From Candidatus Caldarchaeum sp. (GTDB lineage: Archaea; Thermoproteota; Nitrososphaeria_A; Caldarchaeales; Caldarchaeaceae): a stretch of 64,000 nt of DNA. Location of the stretch: contig JAVQUC010000003.1 in NCBI GenBank assembly GCA_033580815.1, positions 31,292 to 95,291 on the forward strand. Reading direction: 5' to 3'. Below, in pieces: positions 10,894 to 42,984 of this stretch. The stretch's first letter is position 1. Every line of letters starts with the position of its first letter. A model generated the notes under the pieces. It saw nothing but the letters and a program-made list of their open reading frames with translations, searched no databases and had not been told where the DNA came from. The translations under genes and the position numbers were made by a program.

Positions 10894-11778
10894 ATGGACG
10901 CGGACTACAGAGAATTCATCGACAACGAATACAAAGACCACAAGGTCTACAGCATGCTTGCTAAAATCGAGAAGAACGGTGACAGAAAACAGCTCTTACA
11001 GAAACTGGCCGATATTGAAAGGAGTCATTCCGAGTTTTGGCGGAAGTATGCCCCCGAACACAGGCCAAAAATTTCAGGACTTTACCTGCGTCTACTCGCT
11101 TTGATACGGGTTTTCTTCGGGGTGACCTTTGTGGTCAAAATGCTTGAAAACCACGAGAAAAAGACCATGCAGAAATATCTCCGAATGATTCAGCTTCTCG
11201 ACCAAGACAACCCTGAAAGACGTTCAATTGAGAGGTTCATCAAGGAGGAATCGGAACTGGAGACATCCCTGGTGTCTAGCATCGATGAGGCGATAGTGCG
11301 GTACATAGGGTTTGTCATGCTCGGGCTTGCCGACGCGATCATAGAGGTCACTGGTGTTCAAGCAGGGTTTCTCGGGGTTACGAATTCCGCCTTGGTAGCA
11401 GGCTTGGCTGGACTCATCGTCGGAACCGCGGCGTCAATTTCGATGGGGGCGGCGGCCTTCTTGCAGGCGAGGCAAACGCCCAAAGAGAATGCCATCGTTC
11501 CCGGAATGTTGACCGGCATAATCTATTTCATCACAGTCCTCTTCATCGCTTCACCATATTTCTTAGCATCGGACCTCACGATGGCCTTTGGCGTGTCGAT
11601 AACAATTTCTGCTGTTCTCGTTGCTCTGTTTTCATTCTTCGTATCCATAGTCCAGAACAGGAGCTTCCGTAAAGAATTCTTCATCAACATAACGTTACTC
11701 GCATCAGTCATACTTGTCACCTACACCATAGGAAATTTGCTGGGAGCCTACTTCGGCATCAAACAACTGATTCCCTAG
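10894..11778 (+). CDS. VIT1/CCC1-family iron/manganese transporter with N-terminal ferritin-like domain
   Basis: 294 aa. The N-terminal helical soluble domain is followed by about 5 TM helices. The layout is as in the CCC1-like family (from memory). Confidence 0.7.
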   Translation: MDADYREFIDNEYKDHKVYSMLAKIEKNGDRKQLLQKLADIERSHSEFWRKYAPEHRPKISGLYLRLLALIRVFFGVTFVVKMLENHEKKTMQKYLRMIQLLDQDNPERRSIERFIKEESELETSLVSSIDEAIVRYIGFVMLGLADAIIEVTGVQAGFLGVTNSALVAGLAGLIVGTAASISMGAAAFLQARQTPKENAIVPGMLTGIIYFITVLFIASPYFLASDLTMAFGVSITISAVLVALFSFFVSIVQNRSFRKEFFINITLLASVILVTYTIGNLLGAYFGIKQLIP

Positions 11779-34750: not shown

Positions 34751-35080
34751 GTGGTTTTCTTGAAATGCGAGGTCTGCGGCGAACCAATCCCGTATGTTTT
34801 GCTGCGTCTAGACCTGCCTAGATGTCCGAAAGGCCACGAACTGGGTGTCTGGGTTGCGTGCGGCAATTCCGATGAAAGCCACGTTTACTTGCGCAAGGGC
34901 CTGGCGAGATGCCCTTACTGTGGAAACGATTCGTATCGTTTGATGTCGAAAGGCATGAGAGTTAAGTGTCTTCACACCGGACCCGCCGGCCCATGTGCTT
35001 ATCCTGATTATGTTTGGCTTGAAGACGGCCCGCCATGCCACCTAAACCATTTAACTAAGATAGCGGTAGTCAAACAGTAG
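34751..35080 (+). CDS. Cys-rich zinc-ribbon protein, function unknown
   Basis: 109 aa. CEVCG..CPKGH and CPYCG plus further Cys/His. It sits between ilvE (3 nt intervening) and sua5 (1 nt intervening). Confidence 0.5.
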   Translation: MVFLKCEVCGEPIPYVLLRLDLPRCPKGHELGVWVACGNSDESHVYLRKGLARCPYCGNDSYRLMSKGMRVKCLHTGPAGPCAYPDYVWLEDGPPCHLNHLTKIAVVKQ

Positions 35081-35081
35081 C

Positions 35082-35681
35082 TTGAGGAGGATTGAACAAA
35101 TCGCTGAAGCCGTGAAGGCCGTTTTGAAAGGAGGCGTCGTGGTTTACCCGACTGACACTGTTTACGGAATCGGATGCGACCCATTCGACACTAACGCAGT
35201 TCAGCGCGTAATCGAAATAAAGAAGAGGGAGGCAAAGCCGATGCCGGTGCTCTTGTCCAACATTGACATGCTCTACGCGGTGGCCGAGCCAACATCCGAG
35301 GAAATCGAAGCGGCCTTCAAGCTTTGGCCGGGTCCCGTAACCATCTTGATGAAGAAAAGCCCAAACCTCCCGGGAATAGTCACGGCCGGCGAAGAAACTG
35401 TGGGAGTTAGAATACCAGCACACCTCATACCGTTAACTATCATGGAAAGAACCGGGAAGCCGCTCGTCGGAACGAGCGCCAACATCTCGGGCCAACCATC
35501 CGCAACAGAGCTCGATCAAATAGAGCCGGCTGTCTTGTCTAACGCAGATGTTGCAATCGACGGCGGCCCCACTTTCTTCGGCGCACCATCGACAGTGATA
35601 AGAATCCACGGAGACGGGTTCACGGTCTTGAGAGAGGGCGCGATGAATTCAGATTCAATCGCGAAAAGGCTCAGACTCTAG
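35082..35681 (+). CDS. tsaC: L-threonylcarbamoyladenylate synthase, YrdC-domain-only form (Sua5/TsaC)
   Basis: 199 aa. VVYPTDTVYGIGCDP, KKREAKPMPVLL, GPVTIL, VGVRIP, GTSANISGQP. No C-terminal Sua5 domain. Confidence 0.85.
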   Translation: MRRIEQIAEAVKAVLKGGVVVYPTDTVYGIGCDPFDTNAVQRVIEIKKREAKPMPVLLSNIDMLYAVAEPTSEEIEAAFKLWPGPVTILMKKSPNLPGIVTAGEETVGVRIPAHLIPLTIMERTGKPLVGTSANISGQPSATELDQIEPAVLSNADVAIDGGPTFFGAPSTVIRIHGDGFTVLREGAMNSDSIAKRLRL

Positions 35682-36223
35682 ATCATCGTGGCGCTCATTT
35701 TCTGTATGATAAGTAGCTTGACAGCTTCCTTCTCGGTTTTGGCTTGAACCGCAGCTAACTGCTCCCGTTCGATACCGTAGGCTTCGACAATTTTCTCAAT
35801 ATCTGGATTTTCGTCTAGTCCTCTCTCGACCCCTCCCGCGGCCTCGACGATTTTCCTTGCCATGGCAACCGCATCCTCCGGATTGTCTGCGACCACTACA
35901 TACAAGGCTTCTCTGGAGTTCGGGGGGAGGCCGGCTTTCGCAATCGCATCGTCTATTTGAGTTGTAGCCGCGAGGCGGAGCAAAACTTCATTTGCCAGCG
36001 TCTTGGCTTTCTGCTTCTGACTTCCGAAAGCGAGCATGGCTGTAACGATGGCGGCGTCGAAAACGTCCCAATCCATGACTATTTCGGGTTTAACCAGCTG
36101 GACGTTCTTAAAACCAGCGAAAACCTCCTCCACAAACTCTTTCGCAGTAGTCTTTACTATTTCAACAACACCAGTCGCGAAAAACATCCCCCGAAACTCC
36201 AGCAGCCTCATTTTATCCACCAT
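35678..36223 (-). CDS. cgi121: KEOPS complex subunit Cgi121-like
   Basis: 181 aa. By-eye match to the archaeal Cgi121 pattern (NVQLVKPEIV.., AKTLANEVLLRLAATTQIDDAI, YVVV, IVEAYGI, C-terminal helix). The start lies 11 nt inside the upstream Ubl gene. Confidence 0.6.
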   Translation of the reverse strand: MVDKMRLLEFRGMFFATGVVEIVKTTAKEFVEEVFAGFKNVQLVKPEIVMDWDVFDAAIVTAMLAFGSQKQKAKTLANEVLLRLAATTQIDDAIAKAGLPPNSREALYVVVADNPEDAVAMARKIVEAAGGVERGLDENPDIEKIVEAYGIEREQLAAVQAKTEKEAVKLLIIQKMSATMI

Positions 36224-36485
36224 GAATAGACGGTATTAGGGTTACTGTGTCGCCGTCCTCGATCTCGGTTTCGAGCCAGGAGAGATAACGTACATCAACA
36301 CCGTTGACGAGAATTAAAACCCCTGGCTGCGGCTTCCCCAAGTCGTCCACCACAAACCTTCTGAGGCCTTCATCAAGCCTGTTAAGCAGTTCAGACAACC
36401 TAATCCTACCTTCAACATCCAGTTCGACAAATCTCTTTCCGGCAACAGACCGAAGCGGTCCGAGTAACTCGACTCTCACCAACAC
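36213..36485 (-). CDS. MoaD/ThiS/SAMP-type ubiquitin-like protein with C-terminal diglycine
   Basis: The ORF track starts at GTG 36533. GTG 36485 or 36479 fits the family N-terminus (VRVELLGPLRSVAGKR) and the upstream TATA. The protein ends DGDTVTLIPSIHGG-stop, which is typical of beta-grasp sulfur carriers and modifiers. Confidence 0.7.
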   Translation of the reverse strand: MLVRVELLGPLRSVAGKRFVELDVEGRIRLSELLNRLDEGLRRFVVDDLGKPQPGVLILVNGVDVRYLSWLETEIEDGDTVTLIPSIHGG

Positions 36486-36502: not shown

Positions 36503-36543
36503 TAAAAAATATTTGCAAACCGTTCGACGGCACAATTTTATAT
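36503..36543. promoter_or_regulatory. Back-to-back TATA-like boxes of the divergent Ubl and HEAT-protein genes
   Basis: On the minus strand, AAATATTTTTTA (36503-36514) lies 24-30 nt upstream of GTG 36485/36479. On the plus strand, TTTTATAT (36536-36543) lies about 25 nt upstream of ATG 36565. Both genes would be leaderless. Confidence 0.45.
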
Positions 36544-36564: not shown

Positions 36565-37068
36565 ATGCAGATTCCCGGGGAAAGGATAAGAATCTTCTTC
36601 GAAATGGAGGGAAAATACAGGGAGAAGGATGCCGAATATTTTCGAAGACTCTTAACCAGCAGCGATTTCGTTGTACGTGCGAGGGCGACTTGCATCCTTG
36701 CGGAGATCGGCGGCCGCGAATACATCCCTGACCTCGCCCGCGTACTACTCGAAGACGATAACCCAATCGTGAGACATGAAGCAGCGTACAGCCTTGGACA
36801 ACTTGGTTACAGAGAGGCGATTCCCTACCTCGTCCAGTCTATGAAAACCGACCCACATCCGATAGTCAGACACGAGTCGGCCATAGCTCTCGGAGTCATA
36901 GGGAAAGAGGAGCCTGTTCCAGAGCTTATCCAAGCACTTGAAGACCCTTCACAGGAGGTGGTCGATTCAGCAATCATTGCGCTCAGTAACATCGAATTCT
37001 GCAAAAGACTGTTCAGCGCATCAACTGACGAAACGTCATTGGAGTTCGCTAGGAAAACGGGTGGATAA
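36565..37068 (+). CDS. HEAT-repeat protein resembling one half of deoxyhypusine hydroxylase (two His-Glu repeats)
   Basis: The ORF track starts at 36304, antisense to the Ubl gene. ATG 36565 gives 167 aa with four HEAT-like repeats. Repeats 2 and 3 are NPIVRHEAAYSLGQLGYREAIPYLV and HPIVRHESAIALGVIGKEEPVPELI. See findings. Confidence 0.65.
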   Translation: MQIPGERIRIFFEMEGKYREKDAEYFRRLLTSSDFVVRARATCILAEIGGREYIPDLARVLLEDDNPIVRHEAAYSLGQLGYREAIPYLVQSMKTDPHPIVRHESAIALGVIGKEEPVPELIQALEDPSQEVVDSAIIALSNIEFCKRLFSASTDETSLEFARKTGG

Positions 37069-37122: not shown

Positions 37123-37587
37123 ATGGTAAATCGTGTTATGAGGGAGTTCAGCTTTATCCTCAACGGTCAACCAGTTAAGATATCTTCGCCTCCCGGCTAT
37201 ACGCTGCTGGAGGTGTTGCGATACGTTCTCCGTTTAACCGGGACGAAAGACGGTTGCAGTAGCGGTGATTGTGGAGCATGCACTGTGCTGCTCGACGGCC
37301 GGCCGGTACATTCATGTCTCACGCTGATTTCGCAAGTTGAGGGCAGAAACGTGGTTACCGTCGAAGGTGTCGACGAAATATTTCCAAGGTCTTACGCTGA
37401 AGAAGGGGCGGTTCAGTGTGGATACTGTATACCCGGATTCGTTGTCACAACAGCGGCCTTCCTAAGGGAGAAGCCGACTCCCACGGTTGATGAAATCAGG
37501 GAAGCGTTGAGGGGGAACCTCTGCCGCTGCACTGGATATGTCAAAATCATCAAAGCTGTTCAGAAATCAGCGGGTGAAATGCGTTGA
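37123..37587 (+). CDS. Xanthine dehydrogenase/CO dehydrogenase family, small [2Fe-2S] subunit
   Basis: 154 aa. Plant-type cluster CSSGDCGACTV and second cluster QCGYCIPGF..CRCTGY. Confidence 0.9.
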   Translation: MVNRVMREFSFILNGQPVKISSPPGYTLLEVLRYVLRLTGTKDGCSSGDCGACTVLLDGRPVHSCLTLISQVEGRNVVTVEGVDEIFPRSYAEEGAVQCGYCIPGFVVTTAAFLREKPTPTVDEIREALRGNLCRCTGYVKIIKAVQKSAGEMR

Positions 37588-38462
37588 GGTCACTGGCTTA
37601 CATCGATGTCTTCACACCCAAAAACCTTGAAGAAGCCCTCGAAATACTCGATAAACAATCTGACCGCATACGTGTCCTCGCGGGAGGAACAGACCTCATA
37701 CTCCAACTAAGAAGAGCAAAGCAGTCAAGAGAGAACCTGCTGAACATCTATTCCTTGGACGAGCTCCGATACATCAAATTCGAAAATGGGCTAGTCAAGA
37801 TCGGGGCCTTAACCGATTTTATGACGATAACACAATCCCCTATAATCCAAAAGTATGCACCTATTCTGGCGGAAGCCGCCCAAACCATCGGCTCCATCCA
37901 AATACTGAACAAAGCATCCATAGGGGGGAACATAGTCAACGCGTCTCCTGCGGCCGATTCCCTACCAGCTCTTTACGTCCTCGAAGCATCTCTCACACTC
38001 CGGAAAAAGAATTCAAGCAGGCAGACGTCGATTTTGGATTTCTACCGAGGCTACAAGCTGCTTGACCTGCAGCCGGGGGAGCTGCTGGTCGAAATTTCGT
38101 TTAAGCCAATGAGGGAGAATCAGGTAGGGATGTTTTTCAAACACGGTCTCAGGCAGGGTGACGCGATTTCCGTCGTCAACGGCGCCGTCTTACTCGAGAT
38201 AGAGCCAGCATCCCATATCGTCAGGGATGCAAGGATTGCGTTGGGGGCCGTCGCGCCCACGGTTGTCCGAGCTCATCAAGCTGAGCAATATCTCGAAGGG
38301 AGGAATCTTGATGAAAAAACCATCAAACAAGCTTCCGAATACATCGTCACGTCTATAAGCCCTATCGACGATGTTCGTGGGTCGGCCGCCTACAGGACAG
38401 AAATGTGCAAGAATTATGTCTTTATGACTTTGTGGAAGATTGCCGAGATGTTGGGGAGATGA
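37584..38462 (+). CDS. Xanthine dehydrogenase/CO dehydrogenase family, medium FAD-binding subunit
   Basis: 292 aa. AGGTDL and ASIGGNI motifs, and a C-terminal CO-dehydrogenase flavoprotein domain (DVRGSAAYR). 4-nt overlaps with both neighbours. Confidence 0.85.
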   Translation: MRSLAYIDVFTPKNLEEALEILDKQSDRIRVLAGGTDLILQLRRAKQSRENLLNIYSLDELRYIKFENGLVKIGALTDFMTITQSPIIQKYAPILAEAAQTIGSIQILNKASIGGNIVNASPAADSLPALYVLEASLTLRKKNSSRQTSILDFYRGYKLLDLQPGELLVEISFKPMRENQVGMFFKHGLRQGDAISVVNGAVLLEIEPASHIVRDARIALGAVAPTVVRAHQAEQYLEGRNLDEKTIKQASEYIVTSISPIDDVRGSAAYRTEMCKNYVFMTLWKIAEMLGR

Positions 38463-40717
38463 CTTCGGTCACTCGCTGGGTTGGAAAAGAAGTTGTCCGA
38501 AGGGATGCGTTGGAGAAGGCACGCGGCATTACAAAATACGCTTCGGACATGTTTCCTGAAAACCTTTTGTGGGTAGCCACCCACAGAAGCAAGCATCCTC
38601 ACGCGAGGATACTCAAAATCGACGTCTCGAAAGCCTTGAAGAGTTCAGGCGTCGTCGCGGTTTTTACGCACCGGGACGTACCGAACAACAGGTACGGAGT
38701 TTTCGTTAAGGATAGACCGGTTCTCTGTGACGACCGTGTCAGATACATCGGGGACCCGATAGCCCTCGTGGCTGCGGAGACGAAGGAAGATGCTGAGCAG
38801 GCGGTTGATGAAATCATCGTCGACTACGAGCCCTTGCCAGTCGTTACAGACCCTCTAGAAGCTATGAAACCATCGTCGACGCCGATACACGAAAACGGCA
38901 ACATTGCACGAAGTACCAGAATAACTCGTGGAAATGTTGCGCTCGGGTTGAGAGAGTCGAAGGTGGTCGTGGAAAACGAATACAGGACTTCGTCTCAGAT
39001 ACATGCTTTCCTCGAGACGGAAGCCGGAATATCCTACATTGATGAAGCCGGTAGAATAACCGTCGTGGCCGGCGGACAGTCTCCGTACCGGGACCACCAT
39101 GAAATTGTCTCAACTCTGATGCTTCCTCCCGAAAAAGTGAGGGTTATCATCCCCCAGGTCGGAGGAGCTTTTGGCGGAAAGGATGACATTTCCGTGCAGA
39201 TCCATCTCGCCTTGGTCACCCTCCGGACGGGGAGGCCTGCTCGTTTGGTTTGGGACCGAGAGGAGTCGATGATCTCGGGGACAAAACGTCATCCATCCAT
39301 CGTTAGGATGCGCACCGGCGCCTCCGCCGACGGCAGGTTGCTGGCCAACGACGTCGAAATCATTTACGACACAGGTGCATACTGCGCACTCGGCCCGGCT
39401 GTGCTTGATGTAGCCATCGAAAACTGTAACGGGCCCTACAAGATACCCAACGTAGACGTAAAGGCGACTCTGGTGTACACGAACAACTTGGTTGCCTCTG
39501 CTTTCCGAGGTTTCGGAGCCCCGCAGGTTATGTTTGCCATGGAGCAGCAGGTTGACCAGCTCGCCCATGAGCTCGGCATGGACCCCGTCGAGTTCCGTCT
39601 CATCAACGCGCTCCGGAAAGGAGACACCATGGTGTTCGGCAACAAAATCGAAACCAGCGTCGGCATAGCGAAATGCCTCGAAACCGCAAAAAACCATACG
39701 CTGTGGCGTGATAAGCATCACCACAAAACTCTGAAAAGTTATCCGTGGATCAAGAGAGGTGTTGGTGTGGCGGCGGCCGTGAAAGGATATACGTTAGGGG
39801 CGCTGCCCGACAGGGGAAGCGTCGCCGTGGAGCTGAGGCTTGACGGCGGCTTCACGGTAAAAGGCAGTTTTACGGAAATCGGGCAGGGAGTCATTCAATC
39901 CGTTGCCCAAATCGCCGCCGAGCTTTTCAGCGTTGACATAGGTAAAGTCGATGTTGTATTCGCGGACACGGACAAAACACCCGACACGAGCGTGACATCG
40001 GCCTCCAGACAACTCTTTCTGGCGGGCAACGCTTTGAAAGATGCGGCAAAGAAGATGACACAGCATGTTCGAGATTTTCTATCACGGACGATGGGTCGGG
40101 CTGTTGAGGATGGACGGTTCGAAAACGAGTATTTTGTCGGACGTGATTTGAAAATTTCGCTCACCGACCTGGCTCAATTGATGGAGAAAGGCGGTGTCAA
40201 ACGCGAAGTGACAGGCGTTTATGACGTCCCGCGCGTGCAACCGATTCCGGGATCGCTTGAGATTCCTCACCTATTTTACATGTTCGGTGTTTCACTGGTT
40301 CTGGTCGAGGTCAACACCCTAACCGGGACAGTAGCCGTACAAAAGTTGGTCAGCATAGCGGATGTCGGCAAAGTCATCAACCCACAAACTCTGACGGGTC
40401 AGCTTGAAGGAGCGGCCGCCCAGGGCATCGGGTTCGCCCTTCTAGAAGAGCCAAAAATCGAGAACGGTATCTTGAAAACTACTAACCTCTCTACATACTT
40501 GATTCCCAGCATCTTGGACACGCCTGAAATCGAGGTCATCCCCATCGAAGACCCCGAAGAATCAGGGCCCTTCGGAGCGAAAGGAATAGGCGAAATCGGA
40601 ATCATATCCGTCGCGCCCGCGGTGGCGAACGCTATCTACGACGCGGTCGGAGTAAGGCCAAGGTCGGCGCCGATGACACCTGAAAAAATCTACTGGCTGT
40701 TAAAAGACAAGAAATAA
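38459..40717 (+). CDS. Xanthine dehydrogenase/aldehyde oxidase family, large molybdopterin subunit
   Basis: The ORF track starts at 38405. ATG 38459 overlaps the medium-subunit stop (ATGA). Motifs: GGAFGGK, FRGFGAPQ, GAKGIGEIG. No CoxL-type VAYRCSFR loop was seen, so this is probably not an aerobic CODH. Confidence 0.9.
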   Translation: MTSVTRWVGKEVVRRDALEKARGITKYASDMFPENLLWVATHRSKHPHARILKIDVSKALKSSGVVAVFTHRDVPNNRYGVFVKDRPVLCDDRVRYIGDPIALVAAETKEDAEQAVDEIIVDYEPLPVVTDPLEAMKPSSTPIHENGNIARSTRITRGNVALGLRESKVVVENEYRTSSQIHAFLETEAGISYIDEAGRITVVAGGQSPYRDHHEIVSTLMLPPEKVRVIIPQVGGAFGGKDDISVQIHLALVTLRTGRPARLVWDREESMISGTKRHPSIVRMRTGASADGRLLANDVEIIYDTGAYCALGPAVLDVAIENCNGPYKIPNVDVKATLVYTNNLVASAFRGFGAPQVMFAMEQQVDQLAHELGMDPVEFRLINALRKGDTMVFGNKIETSVGIAKCLETAKNHTLWRDKHHHKTLKSYPWIKRGVGVAAAVKGYTLGALPDRGSVAVELRLDGGFTVKGSFTEIGQGVIQSVAQIAAELFSVDIGKVDVVFADTDKTPDTSVTSASRQLFLAGNALKDAAKKMTQHVRDFLSRTMGRAVEDGRFENEYFVGRDLKISLTDLAQLMEKGGVKREVTGVYDVPRVQPIPGSLEIPHLFYMFGVSLVLVEVNTLTGTVAVQKLVSIADVGKVINPQTLTGQLEGAAAQGIGFALLEEPKIENGILKTTNLSTYLIPSILDTPEIEVIPIEDPEESGPFGAKGIGEIGIISVAPAVANAIYDAVGVRPRSAPMTPEKIYWLLKDKK

Positions 40718-40840: not shown

Positions 40841-42079
40841 TTGGCTAAAATTGTCGTCAAACTTGGTGGGTCTGTTCTTTCTGACGAGCCAAGTATCGAG
40901 AAGGCAGCTGAATGGGTGAAGCAACAAAGGGAAAAAGGGCACAAAATAGCCGTCGTGGTGTCTGCTCTGAAAGGCGTCACCGACGACCTGCTTAGAAGCG
41001 CTCAACGGATTAACCCCGACGCTCCTCCCGAGCTTTTGGACGAACTGCTTGCCATGGGTGAAAGAACGAGCGCACGTCTTTTCACCATCGCTCTGAGGAA
41101 AAAAGGCGTCGAAGCCGTAGTTGTCGACCCCGATTCCGAAGAATGGCCAGTGATAACCGACGACAGGCATCTCGACGCTACCCCGATCCTGGAGCTCTGC
41201 AGACCCCGCGTTAAAAATGGTGTCGAGAGGTTGATGGAAAGAGGGTTGGTGCCTGTGGTTTGTGGATACGTTGGGTTGACGGCTGACGGGAAAATCACCA
41301 CGATGGGTCGCGGCGGAAGCGACACAACTGCTGTGCTGCTTGCAAACTGTCTCGAAGCAGATGAAGTGGTGTTGGTTAAGGATGTCGCGGGTGTCTACTC
41401 AACAGACCCGAGCAAATCAGCTGATGCTAAAATTCTTGAGATTCTGAGCGCGGACGAAGTTCTCCGGCTGAGTAAAGGCGGTGCTAAAATCATACACTCT
41501 AAAGCTCTTCTCTTTCTTCATCCAAAGGGAAAAATCAGAATCGGGTCTCTTGAAACGATTGAAAAGACCGGGACAATAATTTTGGGCGCCGAAATTCCGC
41601 GGCTCAACGTGGTCATAGATGACAAGAACGTCACGATGGTTACAGTCATCGGCCAATCGATGAGCGAGCCGAACAAGCTTTCCGCCGCAATCAAAGCAGT
41701 CGAAACATCGGGCGGAAAACTTGTCGCTGCGTCGGCCGAGGAGGAATCACTCATCCTTTACCTGCATGGTGACGGTGAAATAGTCGAAAAAATCCACGAT
41801 TATTTCGTCCAGAACCGGCTCGGCAAGGCCGTCAGCCATTTCCCGAACCTGAGCGTTATAAGGGTTTACGGCGCGATGCTCGAGTTGGTTCCAGGCGTTG
41901 TCTCGAAGGTGGTCCAACCTCTCGCGGCCCGTGCCGTGAACCTGTTTGGCGTTTTGACCATAAGCTCTTCCATACGGGTCTTCGTTTCAACCAAGGAGGT
42001 TGACAAAGCCATAGAGCTCATAAAGGAAAACCTCGCCGACTACATGGCCCCCCAACCAGATGTTCACCCAAGTTCTTGA
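40841..42079 (+). CDS. Aspartate kinase
   Basis: 412 aa with a TTG start; an in-frame TGA lies 6 nt upstream. KIVVKLGGSVL, VVVSALKGVTDDL, GRGGSDTTA, and C-terminal ACT-like repeats. Confidence 0.85.
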   Translation: MAKIVVKLGGSVLSDEPSIEKAAEWVKQQREKGHKIAVVVSALKGVTDDLLRSAQRINPDAPPELLDELLAMGERTSARLFTIALRKKGVEAVVVDPDSEEWPVITDDRHLDATPILELCRPRVKNGVERLMERGLVPVVCGYVGLTADGKITTMGRGGSDTTAVLLANCLEADEVVLVKDVAGVYSTDPSKSADAKILEILSADEVLRLSKGGAKIIHSKALLFLHPKGKIRIGSLETIEKTGTIILGAEIPRLNVVIDDKNVTMVTVIGQSMSEPNKLSAAIKAVETSGGKLVAASAEEESLILYLHGDGEIVEKIHDYFVQNRLGKAVSHFPNLSVIRVYGAMLELVPGVVSKVVQPLAARAVNLFGVLTISSSIRVFVSTKEVDKAIELIKENLADYMAPQPDVHPSS

Positions 42080-42984
42080 ACAAGCCCTAGAGCAAGGAAG
42101 GGGAGGACTATGGAGACGTCGGCTTTGACGAAAACGTGCCGTGCCTTGGGTGAGACCTTGTGCCAGCTAACCGCCTCACGAGGCCTAGCACCGCTCAGGC
42201 TTCCGTCGTATTCGTCTGCAGTTGAGATGTAGATCGCGTAGTCGAGACCCTCTCCGCCGAACTGCGACCACCAAAGCAGATGATGCTTTGAAATTCCGCC
42301 GCCGAGCACAAGCCCAGCCTTGCGACGATAATTCCACATTAAATCCTGGACCATGTCCATGTCCTTCTCGTAAGATATGCTCAGCTTCTTTGTCCTACCT
42401 TGGAGCCAGAGTTGGTAGCCGAACGCGCCGTCGAAGATGCCCGGGACGAATACTGGAATGTTGTTTCTCCAGCACCAATATAGGAATGAATTTTCGGACC
42501 CAAGCCTTCGGCCGACGATGTGCAATAGCTCCGAGAAAGACAAGACCGAGCCTATTTCCTGAGATTCGAGCAGTTGCTTCACCTCGTTTTCTATCGTCTG
42601 TCCATAACTTTTTTGGTGTATGAAGACGTTCCCCAGTCTGTGTACGTCCTTTTGGGCCAGCTCCCAGTCGTCGGCGTCGAAGCTTCCAATTCTGTATGTT
42701 GAGCGAGTGCGGGCTATGTCATGGTCAACCGCGCCGCATGTCGTGAATACCACGTCAAACCATTTCCGTTTGAGCATCTCGACCAAAACTCCTCTCAACC
42801 CCGTGGAAACCAAGTTACCCGTGAAGGAAATCAGCCTCAGACAGGACCTATCAAGCACCATCTCCCTTAGCAACTGATAGGCTTGTCCCAGGTGGGCGCC
42901 CATGAAGCCACCCATCCTCACCATCATCCTAAGAACCCCGTCTACGGTAGCATCTTTCGACAAAACTAGGTCTTCGACTTCCAT
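42064..42984 (-). CDS. dys: Deoxyhypusine synthase
   Basis: The ORF track extends to 43065. ATG 42984 (MEVEDLVL..) fits family N-termini and has a TATA-like box upstream. Motifs: GNLVSTGLR, VVFTTCGAVDHD, RLGNVFI, GGGISKHH (catalytic Lys), DGSLSGARP. Confidence 0.85.
   Translation of the reverse strand: MEVEDLVLSKDATVDGVLRMMVRMGGFMGAHLGQAYQLLREMVLDRSCLRLISFTGNLVSTGLRGVLVEMLKRKWFDVVFTTCGAVDHDIARTRSTYRIGSFDADDWELAQKDVHRLGNVFIHQKSYGQTIENEVKQLLESQEIGSVLSFSELLHIVGRRLGSENSFLYWCWRNNIPVFVPGIFDGAFGYQLWLQGRTKKLSISYEKDMDMVQDLMWNYRRKAGLVLGGGISKHHLLWWSQFGGEGLDYAIYISTADEYDGSLSGARPREAVSWHKVSPKARHVFVKADVSIVLPFLALGLVQELG

Follow-up and report, generated by a model that had tools for sequence, protein, structure and literature searches.

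Does any archaeon encode a deoxyhypusine hydroxylase (DOHH)? Hypusine is on record for Sulfolobus, Acidianus and two strictly anaerobic genera, Thermoproteus and Pyrodictium. According to papers of 2012, 2016, 2018 and 2020, archaea have yielded neither an orthologue nor a homologue of DOHH, and how they arrive at hypusine is unsolved. No later report of an archaeal DOHH was found in targeted literature searches. The question is raised by a gene in a 64,000-nucleotide stretch of DNA from Candidatus Caldarchaeum sp. (contig JAVQUC010000003.1, positions 31,292 to 95,291; hereafter the window), whose product was predicted from the sequence to be a half-length DOHH-like HEAT protein and a candidate for the missing hydroxylase. 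The claim of this original prediction that no hydroxylase had been assigned for archaea agrees with the papers cited above. The gene encodes a half-size DOHH homologue, here called half-DOHH, which is very probably a member of the DOHH lineage with His-Glu dyads that bind metal. What is new is a protein of this lineage that has half the usual size, and is presumably a homodimer, in a domain that was said to be without DOHH. The similarity was already latent in databases, as the automatic names of JGI/IMG call several half-DOHH orthologues, and one protein from Nanoarchaeota, "deoxyhypusine monooxygenase".

Half-DOHH aligns with both halves of human DOHH

The open reading frame (ORF) starts with ATG and encodes 167 amino acids followed by a stop codon; the frame, the repeat strings and the C-terminal KTGG were found exactly as originally described. 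The start is supported by an alignment in which orthologues of 162-172 amino acids keep R7, F11, M14 and E15. Together with Y18, D22, F26 and L29 these residues are invariant in the N-terminal helical hairpin of the family. The distance between a TATA-like box and the ATG suggests a leaderless transcript (Table 1). The hairpin is followed by three HEAT repeats, a degenerate fourth repeat and a C-terminal helix with a short tail. A structural model of half-DOHH, calculated with AlphaFold2 (AF2) from a 19-sequence alignment, reached a pLDDT of 93.6 overall and of 66-78 in the C-terminal helix and tail.

The human DOHH sequence used for comparison is that of PDB entry 4D4Z, identical residue for residue over positions 1-289. 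BLASTP placed half-DOHH in register with both human halves (36% and 34% identity, E 6e-17 and 8e-14). In these alignments, H71-E72 falls on human H56-E57 and H207-E208, H103-E104 falls on H89-E90 and H240-E241, and G78-Q79 sits on the glycine of the human LGQ motif. The order of repeats that the original prediction gave for human DOHH proved to be right, and the same order is common to half-DOHH and both DOHH halves: R-x-R-A...L....GG, HE..[YF].LGQ, P.VRHE...ALG.IG and a degenerate cap DP..EV.[DE][ST]. In the human enzyme the di-iron centre is anchored by H56, H89, E90, H207, H240 and E241, and the deoxyhypusine side chain is bound by E57, E90, E208 and E241 together with conserved glycines (PMC9117371). 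The counterparts of these side-chain-binding residues, E72, E104 and G78, are invariant in the half-DOHH family.

In a sequence search of the PDB, human DOHH (4D4Z) was the best natural match to half-DOHH (E 1.8e-26, 96 bits, two matched stretches), and the next natural proteins were Rpn2 (37 bits) and CpcE (29 bits). Human DOHH was outscored only by artificial, consensus-designed alphaRep proteins, which are built from this HEAT repeat family and carry many idealised repeats each. When the half-DOHH model was compared with the PDB by Foldseek, DOHH was the sole natural protein among the top matches and gave the highest TMq (0.71). The proposed check, DOHH as the top PDB match with the dyads aligned on metal ligands, came out as expected for the dyads and among natural proteins, but the designed alphaReps score higher.

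Like eukaryotic DOHH (human DOHH, yeast Lia1; PDB 4D4Z/4D50), half-DOHH is a HEAT alpha-solenoid, and it shares the four-repeat order per half, the dyad positions and the co-occurrence with deoxyhypusine synthase (DHS). Unlike the eukaryotic enzyme it has four instead of eight HEAT repeats, an invariant TGG end and an archaeal host; its scaffold is also less diverged from the generic HEAT_PBS consensus, and its enzymatic activity is a prediction. Canonical DOHH folds eight tandem HEAT repeats into a symmetrical dyad within one polypeptide, whereas half-DOHH corresponds to one half of this dyad. With two His-Glu dyads per chain, two chains are needed to supply four.

The His-Glu dyads are conserved across Nitrososphaerota

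Species genomes of GTDB were searched with a pattern scan, and the homologue counts given below refer to the matches listed. Relatives of half-DOHH were found in 516 species-representative genomes, the best 80 of which all belong to Nitrososphaerota. The closest homologues (63-84% identity) are labelled Candidatus Caldarchaeum, Caldiarchaeum subterraneum or Nitrososphaerota, which places the source of the window among the Aigarchaeota of this group. Orthologues of the size given above occur throughout the Caldarchaeales and the ammonia-oxidising Thaumarchaeota, in the latter at about 50-55% identity. In an alignment across Caldarchaeales and Nitrosopumilales, H71, E72, G78, H103 and E104 are invariant, and the invariant blocks comprise R70-H71-E72-A73, S76-L77-G78-Q79, V101-R102-H103-E104, A108-L109-G110 and the final T-G-G. 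Exactly two VRHE motifs are present in 117 of the 120 homologues listed, and a TGG end likewise in 117 of 120; the few others are for the most part fragmentary or oddly called genes. The dyads are thus conserved in orthologues, a point on which the original prediction could have failed.

For the generic background, a library of 1.84 billion proteins was ranked by score, and 1594 HEAT_PBS-type repeats were collected from 148 of the best 150. Only eight of these repeats (0.5%) have His-Glu at the dyad positions, which are the most variable positions there, in line with the earlier remark that ordinary PBS-lyase HEAT repeats are without the dyad. Because both dyads are kept in nearly all listed homologues against this background, the pattern is more than chance. 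Among the 148 large HEAT proteins, a single one (P0229, 1029 amino acids) has consecutive RHE repeats, with three successive VRHEAAQALG repeats at about 700-780; these could form a DOHH-like metal site or have arisen by chance.

A second half-size clade of about 167-172 amino acids bears the NCBI label Candidatus Bathyarchaeia. Both RHE dyads are present in 117 of its 119 listed members, and the clade (P0389-P0507) is without the TGG end. The C-terminal TGG, invariant within the Nitrososphaeria clade, is not matched by anything in DOHH; the F-A-R-K in front of it is similar to the C-cap found in the alphaRep scaffold family. Among the matches listed, the half-size form was seen only in Nitrososphaerota and in Bathyarchaeia-labelled metagenome-assembled genomes (MAGs), and a full-length form was seen in MAGs of Nanoarchaeota.

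Half-DOHH groups with DOHH halves in a tree, and such halves appear to have been fused in tandem

A neighbour-joining tree was calculated from an alignment of 81 four-repeat units, registered by a hidden Markov model (HMM), in which the generic side was represented by the best generic units. The split between generic units on one side and the half-DOHH family, the eukaryotic halves and the Nanoarchaeota halves on the other received 94% bootstrap support. With the four His-Glu columns deleted, the same split received 64%.

In an exhaustive profile search of 1.84 billion representatives, very large HEAT proteins with many repeats crowded out other matches, which made the result unusable for phyletic distribution; the search did yield the generic background set and a metagenomic protein of 363 amino acids, P0125. 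In this natural fusion protein, two halves of the Nitrososphaerota type are joined in tandem, each with both dyads. Its units are on average 52-53% identical to the single-unit proteins, from which it differs as one fused chain encoded in a cluster of DHS, polyamine and IF5A-like genes; the motifs are the same, and it ends in IGG instead of TGG. In a word-indexed search with P0125, eukaryotic DOHHs came next after close relatives, a result of little weight as the index favours shared words such as VRHEA.

The full-length, DOHH-like proteins from MAGs of Nanoarchaeota, which are DPANN archaea (P0280, P0296, P0301 and P0303; about 280 amino acids), comprise eight HEAT repeats with [RKIL]HE dyads, four in all. 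They share with half-DOHH the archaeal host, the placement in the DOHH clade and the dyads, and differ from it in being single full-length chains with an independent internal duplication, in having LGE instead of LGQ and in lacking TGG. The genes of three loci (L083-L085) are convergent with a gene for a NOG1-type GTPase, and neither DHS nor IF5A was found within 8 kb of them.

In the tree, the N- and C-terminal halves cluster with each other within eukaryotes (80-89% bootstrap) and within Nanoarchaeota (100%), and the two units of P0125 pair as sisters, in this case without a bootstrap value. Read most simply, this topology means that a half-size ancestor was duplicated and fused on three separate occasions, in eukaryotes, in Nanoarchaeota MAGs and in P0125; concerted evolution is a possible alternative explanation for the clustering of the halves. 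Repeated tandem fusion would be expected if a single half works as a homodimer, and it argues for such a dimer.

Half-DOHH is linked to hypusination genes in some genomes

The window contains a gene for DHS at the predicted distance of 5 kb from half-DOHH, and its identity was borne out by Pfam and by an NCBIfam equivalog (Table 1). A spacing of 5.5-7.7 kb between the two genes is kept in seven related Caldarchaeum genomes, as their relatedness predicts. No aIF5A, the archaeal initiation factor 5A, is encoded in the window, as judged by the absence of a GKHG.A[KR] loop in any frame.

The genome of Archaeon HR01 encodes a half-DOHH of 68% identity that adjoins a divergently transcribed DHS-family paralogue across a spacer of 76 nt, and canonical DHS is located 1.1 kb away. 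The neighbourhood shares nothing else with the window, yet the linkage between half-DOHH and DHS is kept. Just downstream of the HR01 half-DOHH, an ORF for a ferritin/rubrerythrin-like protein of 160 amino acids was observed (11069-11551, minus strand).

The strongest case is the P0125 locus (Logan SRR21363124, about 40% GC), whose enzymes were named from Pfam and NCBIfam matches. Its products are, in this order, an IF5A-like protein, DHS, a pyridoxal phosphate (PLP) decarboxylase, N-carbamoylputrescine amidase, agmatine deiminase, P0125 and another IF5A-like protein. The first IF5A-like protein has the loop KAGKHGGPK and a long acidic N-terminal extension, and the second has the loop KTGKQGH. 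Both match almost only a/eIF5A in the PDB, with the hypusine loop aligned, at weak E-values (1.7e-4 and 1.9e-3). The locus may hold all that is needed for hypusination, with atypical IF5A-like proteins as substrates. A viral origin of the contig was considered and rejected, as a scan gave no viral relatives. A link of half-DOHH to hypusination is therefore supported by the nearby DHS in the window, by the adjacency to a DHS-family gene in HR01 and by the P0125 cluster with its DHS and IF5A-like genes.

Proposed function and alternatives

On balance we favour the view that half-DOHH is a homodimeric di-iron deoxyhypusine hydroxylase, with one iron per chain, that acts on aIF5A in Nitrososphaerota. 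Two chains would pair head to head in the manner of the N- and C-terminal halves of eukaryotic DOHH, and each would contribute H71, H103 and E104 to one iron, such that the di-iron site would form only at the dimer interface. Human DOHH, too, reportedly holds one iron per half. The site would activate O2, while E72 and the region around G78 would hold the deoxyhypusine side chain made on aIF5A by DHS, and C2 of this side chain would be hydroxylated to give hypusine.

Several results weigh against this assignment. Overall profile similarity does not favour DOHH: in hhalign comparisons, the half-DOHH family scored 184 with generic HEAT_PBS units and 182 and 163 with the eukaryotic N- and C-halves. 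Likewise, some idealised generic units without His-Glu outscored the DOHH halves per domain with the family HMM (81 versus 63 and 58 bits), the generic comparators having been picked as the top matches among 1.84 billion proteins. Scored from their own side, the DOHH halves reached 182 and 163 with the half-DOHH family and 131 and 108 with generic units, a clear preference for the family. The anticipated refutation by a missing DOHH preference in profile searches is thus neither borne out nor dispelled, and overall profile similarity was dropped as a discriminator. As these scores are neutral, the argument is carried by the dyads, the order of the repeats, the tree and the gene context.

The profile results would also fit a non-catalytic scaffold of the HEAT/PBS-lyase type or a metal-binding adaptor, with His-Glu pairs that serve binding or regulation instead of oxygen chemistry. 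Pfam assigned half-DOHH only to general HEAT families (HEAT_2, HEAT_PBS, HEAT, HEAT_EZ), with 102.6 bits for HEAT_2 (cut-off 27.7) and 58.9 bits for HEAT_PBS (cut-off 20.9), and NCBIfam placed it in generic HEAT families as well. Neither database gave a match to a DOHH-specific model, a result that is uninformative and was not counted as a negative. With PBS-lyase HEAT proteins (PF03130/PF13646: CpcE/F, NblB and the source family of alphaRep) half-DOHH shares the 31-residue repeat VR..AA.ALG.IG...A...L, a C-terminal cap resembling E-T-x-x-x-F-A-R-K and high profile scores. The alphaRep binders are its best overall matches, and large generic HEAT proteins dominated the exhaustive search. Against a scaffold speaks that the dyads are invariant in two successive repeats across deep divergence, at positions that are otherwise the most variable, and that the repeats follow one another as in DOHH. 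Generic PBS-lyase HEAT proteins, by contrast, vary at the dyad positions and in repeat number and have neither a fixed repeat order nor a link to DHS or IF5A. Half-DOHH is also not a member of the phycobiliprotein lyase/NblB equivalogs of NCBIfam, for which its best score was 35.6 bits against a cut-off of 300 (about 10%), and it came close to the cut-off of no other NCBIfam model. Given in addition the tree and the fusion and operon evidence that tie the family to hypusination, a scaffold function appears very unlikely.

The gene context in Thaumarchaeota also runs counter to the proposed function. DHS or IF5A was found within 10 kb of half-DOHH in none of the 69 Thaumarchaeota loci analysed, and none was found in loci of the Nitrososphaerales type. 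The conserved neighbour in Thaumarchaeota is instead a thioredoxin-fold redoxin of about 220 amino acids, encoded upstream and divergently in 63 of the 69 loci, in 55 of these within 400 bp and usually across a spacer of about 100 bp. It has a faint AhpC/TSA match and a VNCPGC motif (CPGC), and its gene is not present in the window. This redoxin could be a reductant partner for the half-DOHH metal site. One protein record of 204 amino acids (P0278) combines the first part of the thaumarchaeal redoxin with the last two-thirds of half-DOHH; as the two genes are normally divergent, it is probably a chimera of assembly or gene calling.

These loci would also suit a true metal-dependent HEAT oxygenase of the DOHH clade whose substrate is not aIF5A but a free polyamine, another modified lysine or a redoxin-linked target. 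The absence of DHS and IF5A from the Thaumarchaeota loci, the divergent CxxC redoxin and the invariant C-terminal TGG without DOHH counterpart all fit such an enzyme, and the atypical IF5A-like proteins of the P0125 cluster suggest that non-canonical substrates can be served. Nevertheless, the counterparts of the deoxyhypusine-binding residues E57/E208 and of the LGQ glycine are invariant in half-DOHH, the linkages that do exist are to DHS and IF5A-like genes, and eIF5A(Dhp) is the only known substrate of the DOHH lineage (PMC9117371). A substrate other than aIF5A is therefore considered unlikely.

Further points against hydroxylation of aIF5A by half-DOHH concern the strength of the linkage, the dimer and the distribution. 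The operon evidence for hypusination comes from one contig, that of P0125, and in the window DHS lies downstream on the opposite strand, beyond an unrelated Cox-type operon and an aspartate kinase gene. P0125 was used as a proxy for the homodimer, and its single-sequence AF2 model is of moderate confidence (pLDDT 70); even so, the model resembles full-length human DOHH in overall shape (TMt 0.77, TMq 0.62; every other PDB match TMq ≤0.40), which speaks for a two-chain unit. No report on the modification state of aIF5A in Nitrososphaerota or ammonia oxidisers was found in the searchable literature. Finally, no crenarchaeal members were seen among the matches listed, which did not amount to a decisive absence search of Sulfolobales and Thermoproteales.

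The description of half-DOHH as a candidate for the missing archaeal hypusine hydroxylase consequently holds for one lineage and goes too far for the hypusine-containing Crenarchaea, where the gene was not seen among the matches listed. One paper concluded that hypusine formation without oxygen implies a different mechanism, and an O2-dependent enzyme cannot explain hypusine in strict anaerobes. Half-DOHH therefore leaves hypusine in Sulfolobales and in the strictly anaerobic Crenarchaea unexplained. Its wide distribution, on the other hand, brings the archaeal hypusine question within reach of a direct test in at least one major lineage of aerobic archaea. Judged from its sequence, half-DOHH may represent an unusual di-iron oxygenase in minimal, symmetric form, each chain holding one metal, and it illustrates how duplication of an archaeal-type half could have given rise to the eukaryotic enzyme.

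A broader scenario, put forward tentatively and with somewhat more doubt than conviction, is that Nitrososphaerota (Aigarchaeota and Thaumarchaeota) and some Bathyarchaeia-labelled MAGs make hypusine with an ancestral homodimeric half-DOHH, that three fusions occurred later and independently, and that in ammonia oxidisers the redoxin may be the physiological reductant of the di-iron site that has long been looked for. If this is true, the textbook statement that archaea have no DOHH is wrong.

Features of the window and of related loci

The coordinates of half-DOHH, of its neighbours and of the related loci are collected in Table 1.

Table 1. Coordinates of half-DOHH, its subregions, neighbouring genes in the window and related loci. 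Locations without locus prefix are positions in the window.
Feature	Location	Strand	Description
TATA-like box of half-DOHH	36536-36543	+	TTTTATAT; about 25 nt 5' of the ATG; read by eye from the sequence
half-DOHH ORF	36565-37068	+	Half-size DOHH homologue
N-terminal helical hairpin, aa 1-30	36565-36654	+	Alignment; AF2 helices 5-19 and 23-29
HEAT repeat 1, aa 31-62	36655-36750	+	Without His-Glu; R-x-R-A...L....GG common to both DOHH halves
HEAT repeat 2, aa 63-94	36751-36846	+	VRHEAAYSLGQ; aligns with human H56-E57, H207-E208 and LGQ Gly; G78 and Q79 invariant
Codons of H71/E72	36775-36780	+	First dyad
HEAT repeat 3, aa 95-126	36847-36942	+	VRHESAIALGVIG; aligns with human iron ligands H89-E90 and H240-E241
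Codons of H103/E104	36871-36876	+	Second dyad
HEAT repeat 4, aa 127-149	36943-37011	+	Degenerate cap DPSQEVVDSAIIALSNIEF; matches DOHH DP..EV.E[ST]C..A
C-terminal helix and tail	37012-37065	+	F-A-R-K-T-G-G; TGG at 37057-37065
Sua5/YrdC	35082-35681	+	
Cgi121	35678-36223	-	
ThiS/Urm1-family ubiquitin-like protein (Ubl)	36213 to about 36485	-	Ends in HGG; start probably near 36479-36485, not 36533
TATA-like box of Ubl gene	36504-36514		
CoxS/CoxM/CoxL-type molybdenum hydroxylase operon	37123-40717		2Fe-2S, FAD and large subunits; between half-DOHH and DHS
DHS	42064-42984	-	Pfam PF01916 (DS) E 1e-91; NCBIfam PRK01221 equivalog 384 bits, cut-off 350
Archaeon HR01 locus	L011:7982-10498		Contiguous: canonical DHS (+), second DHS-family paralogue (-), half-DOHH (+)
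P0125 locus	L082:3857-10635		
Thaumarchaeal redoxin	L029:9232-9891	-	Example
Thaumarchaeal redoxin	L001:9030-9695		Example
Thaumarchaeal redoxin	L013:9258-9920		Example
Thaumarchaeal redoxin	L038:5934-6611		Example
Bathyarchaeia-labelled half-size gene	L086:8001-8540		
Bathyarchaeia-labelled half-size gene	L088:8001-8498		

The half-size gene of the Bathyarchaeia-labelled MAGs is located directly upstream of a gene for a Trm5/Taw2-type methyltransferase and near a Dph5-like TP_methylase gene, both of the translation-modification kind. The Cox-type operon of the window is consistent with an aerobic or facultative lifestyle.

The divergently transcribed neighbour of half-DOHH had been singled out as a diglycine Ubl. 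Such a gene is indeed present and belongs to the ThiS/Urm1 family, but a functional link was rejected, as the Ubl gene sits with Cgi121 and Sua5/YrdC in a cluster of the tRNA-modification type beside half-DOHH, and the pairing is found in close Caldarchaeum relatives and lost outside them. A 95-amino-acid ORF at the corresponding position in Nitrosopumilus is not a Ubl. The Ubl neighbour is thus probably unrelated to half-DOHH.

Upstream of this cluster, a Cys-rich, zinc-ribbon-like ORF of 109 amino acids (34751-35080) without a Pfam match was noted, which is kept at 62-75% identity in related Caldarchaeum genomes, between the genes for a branched-chain aminotransferase and Sua5.

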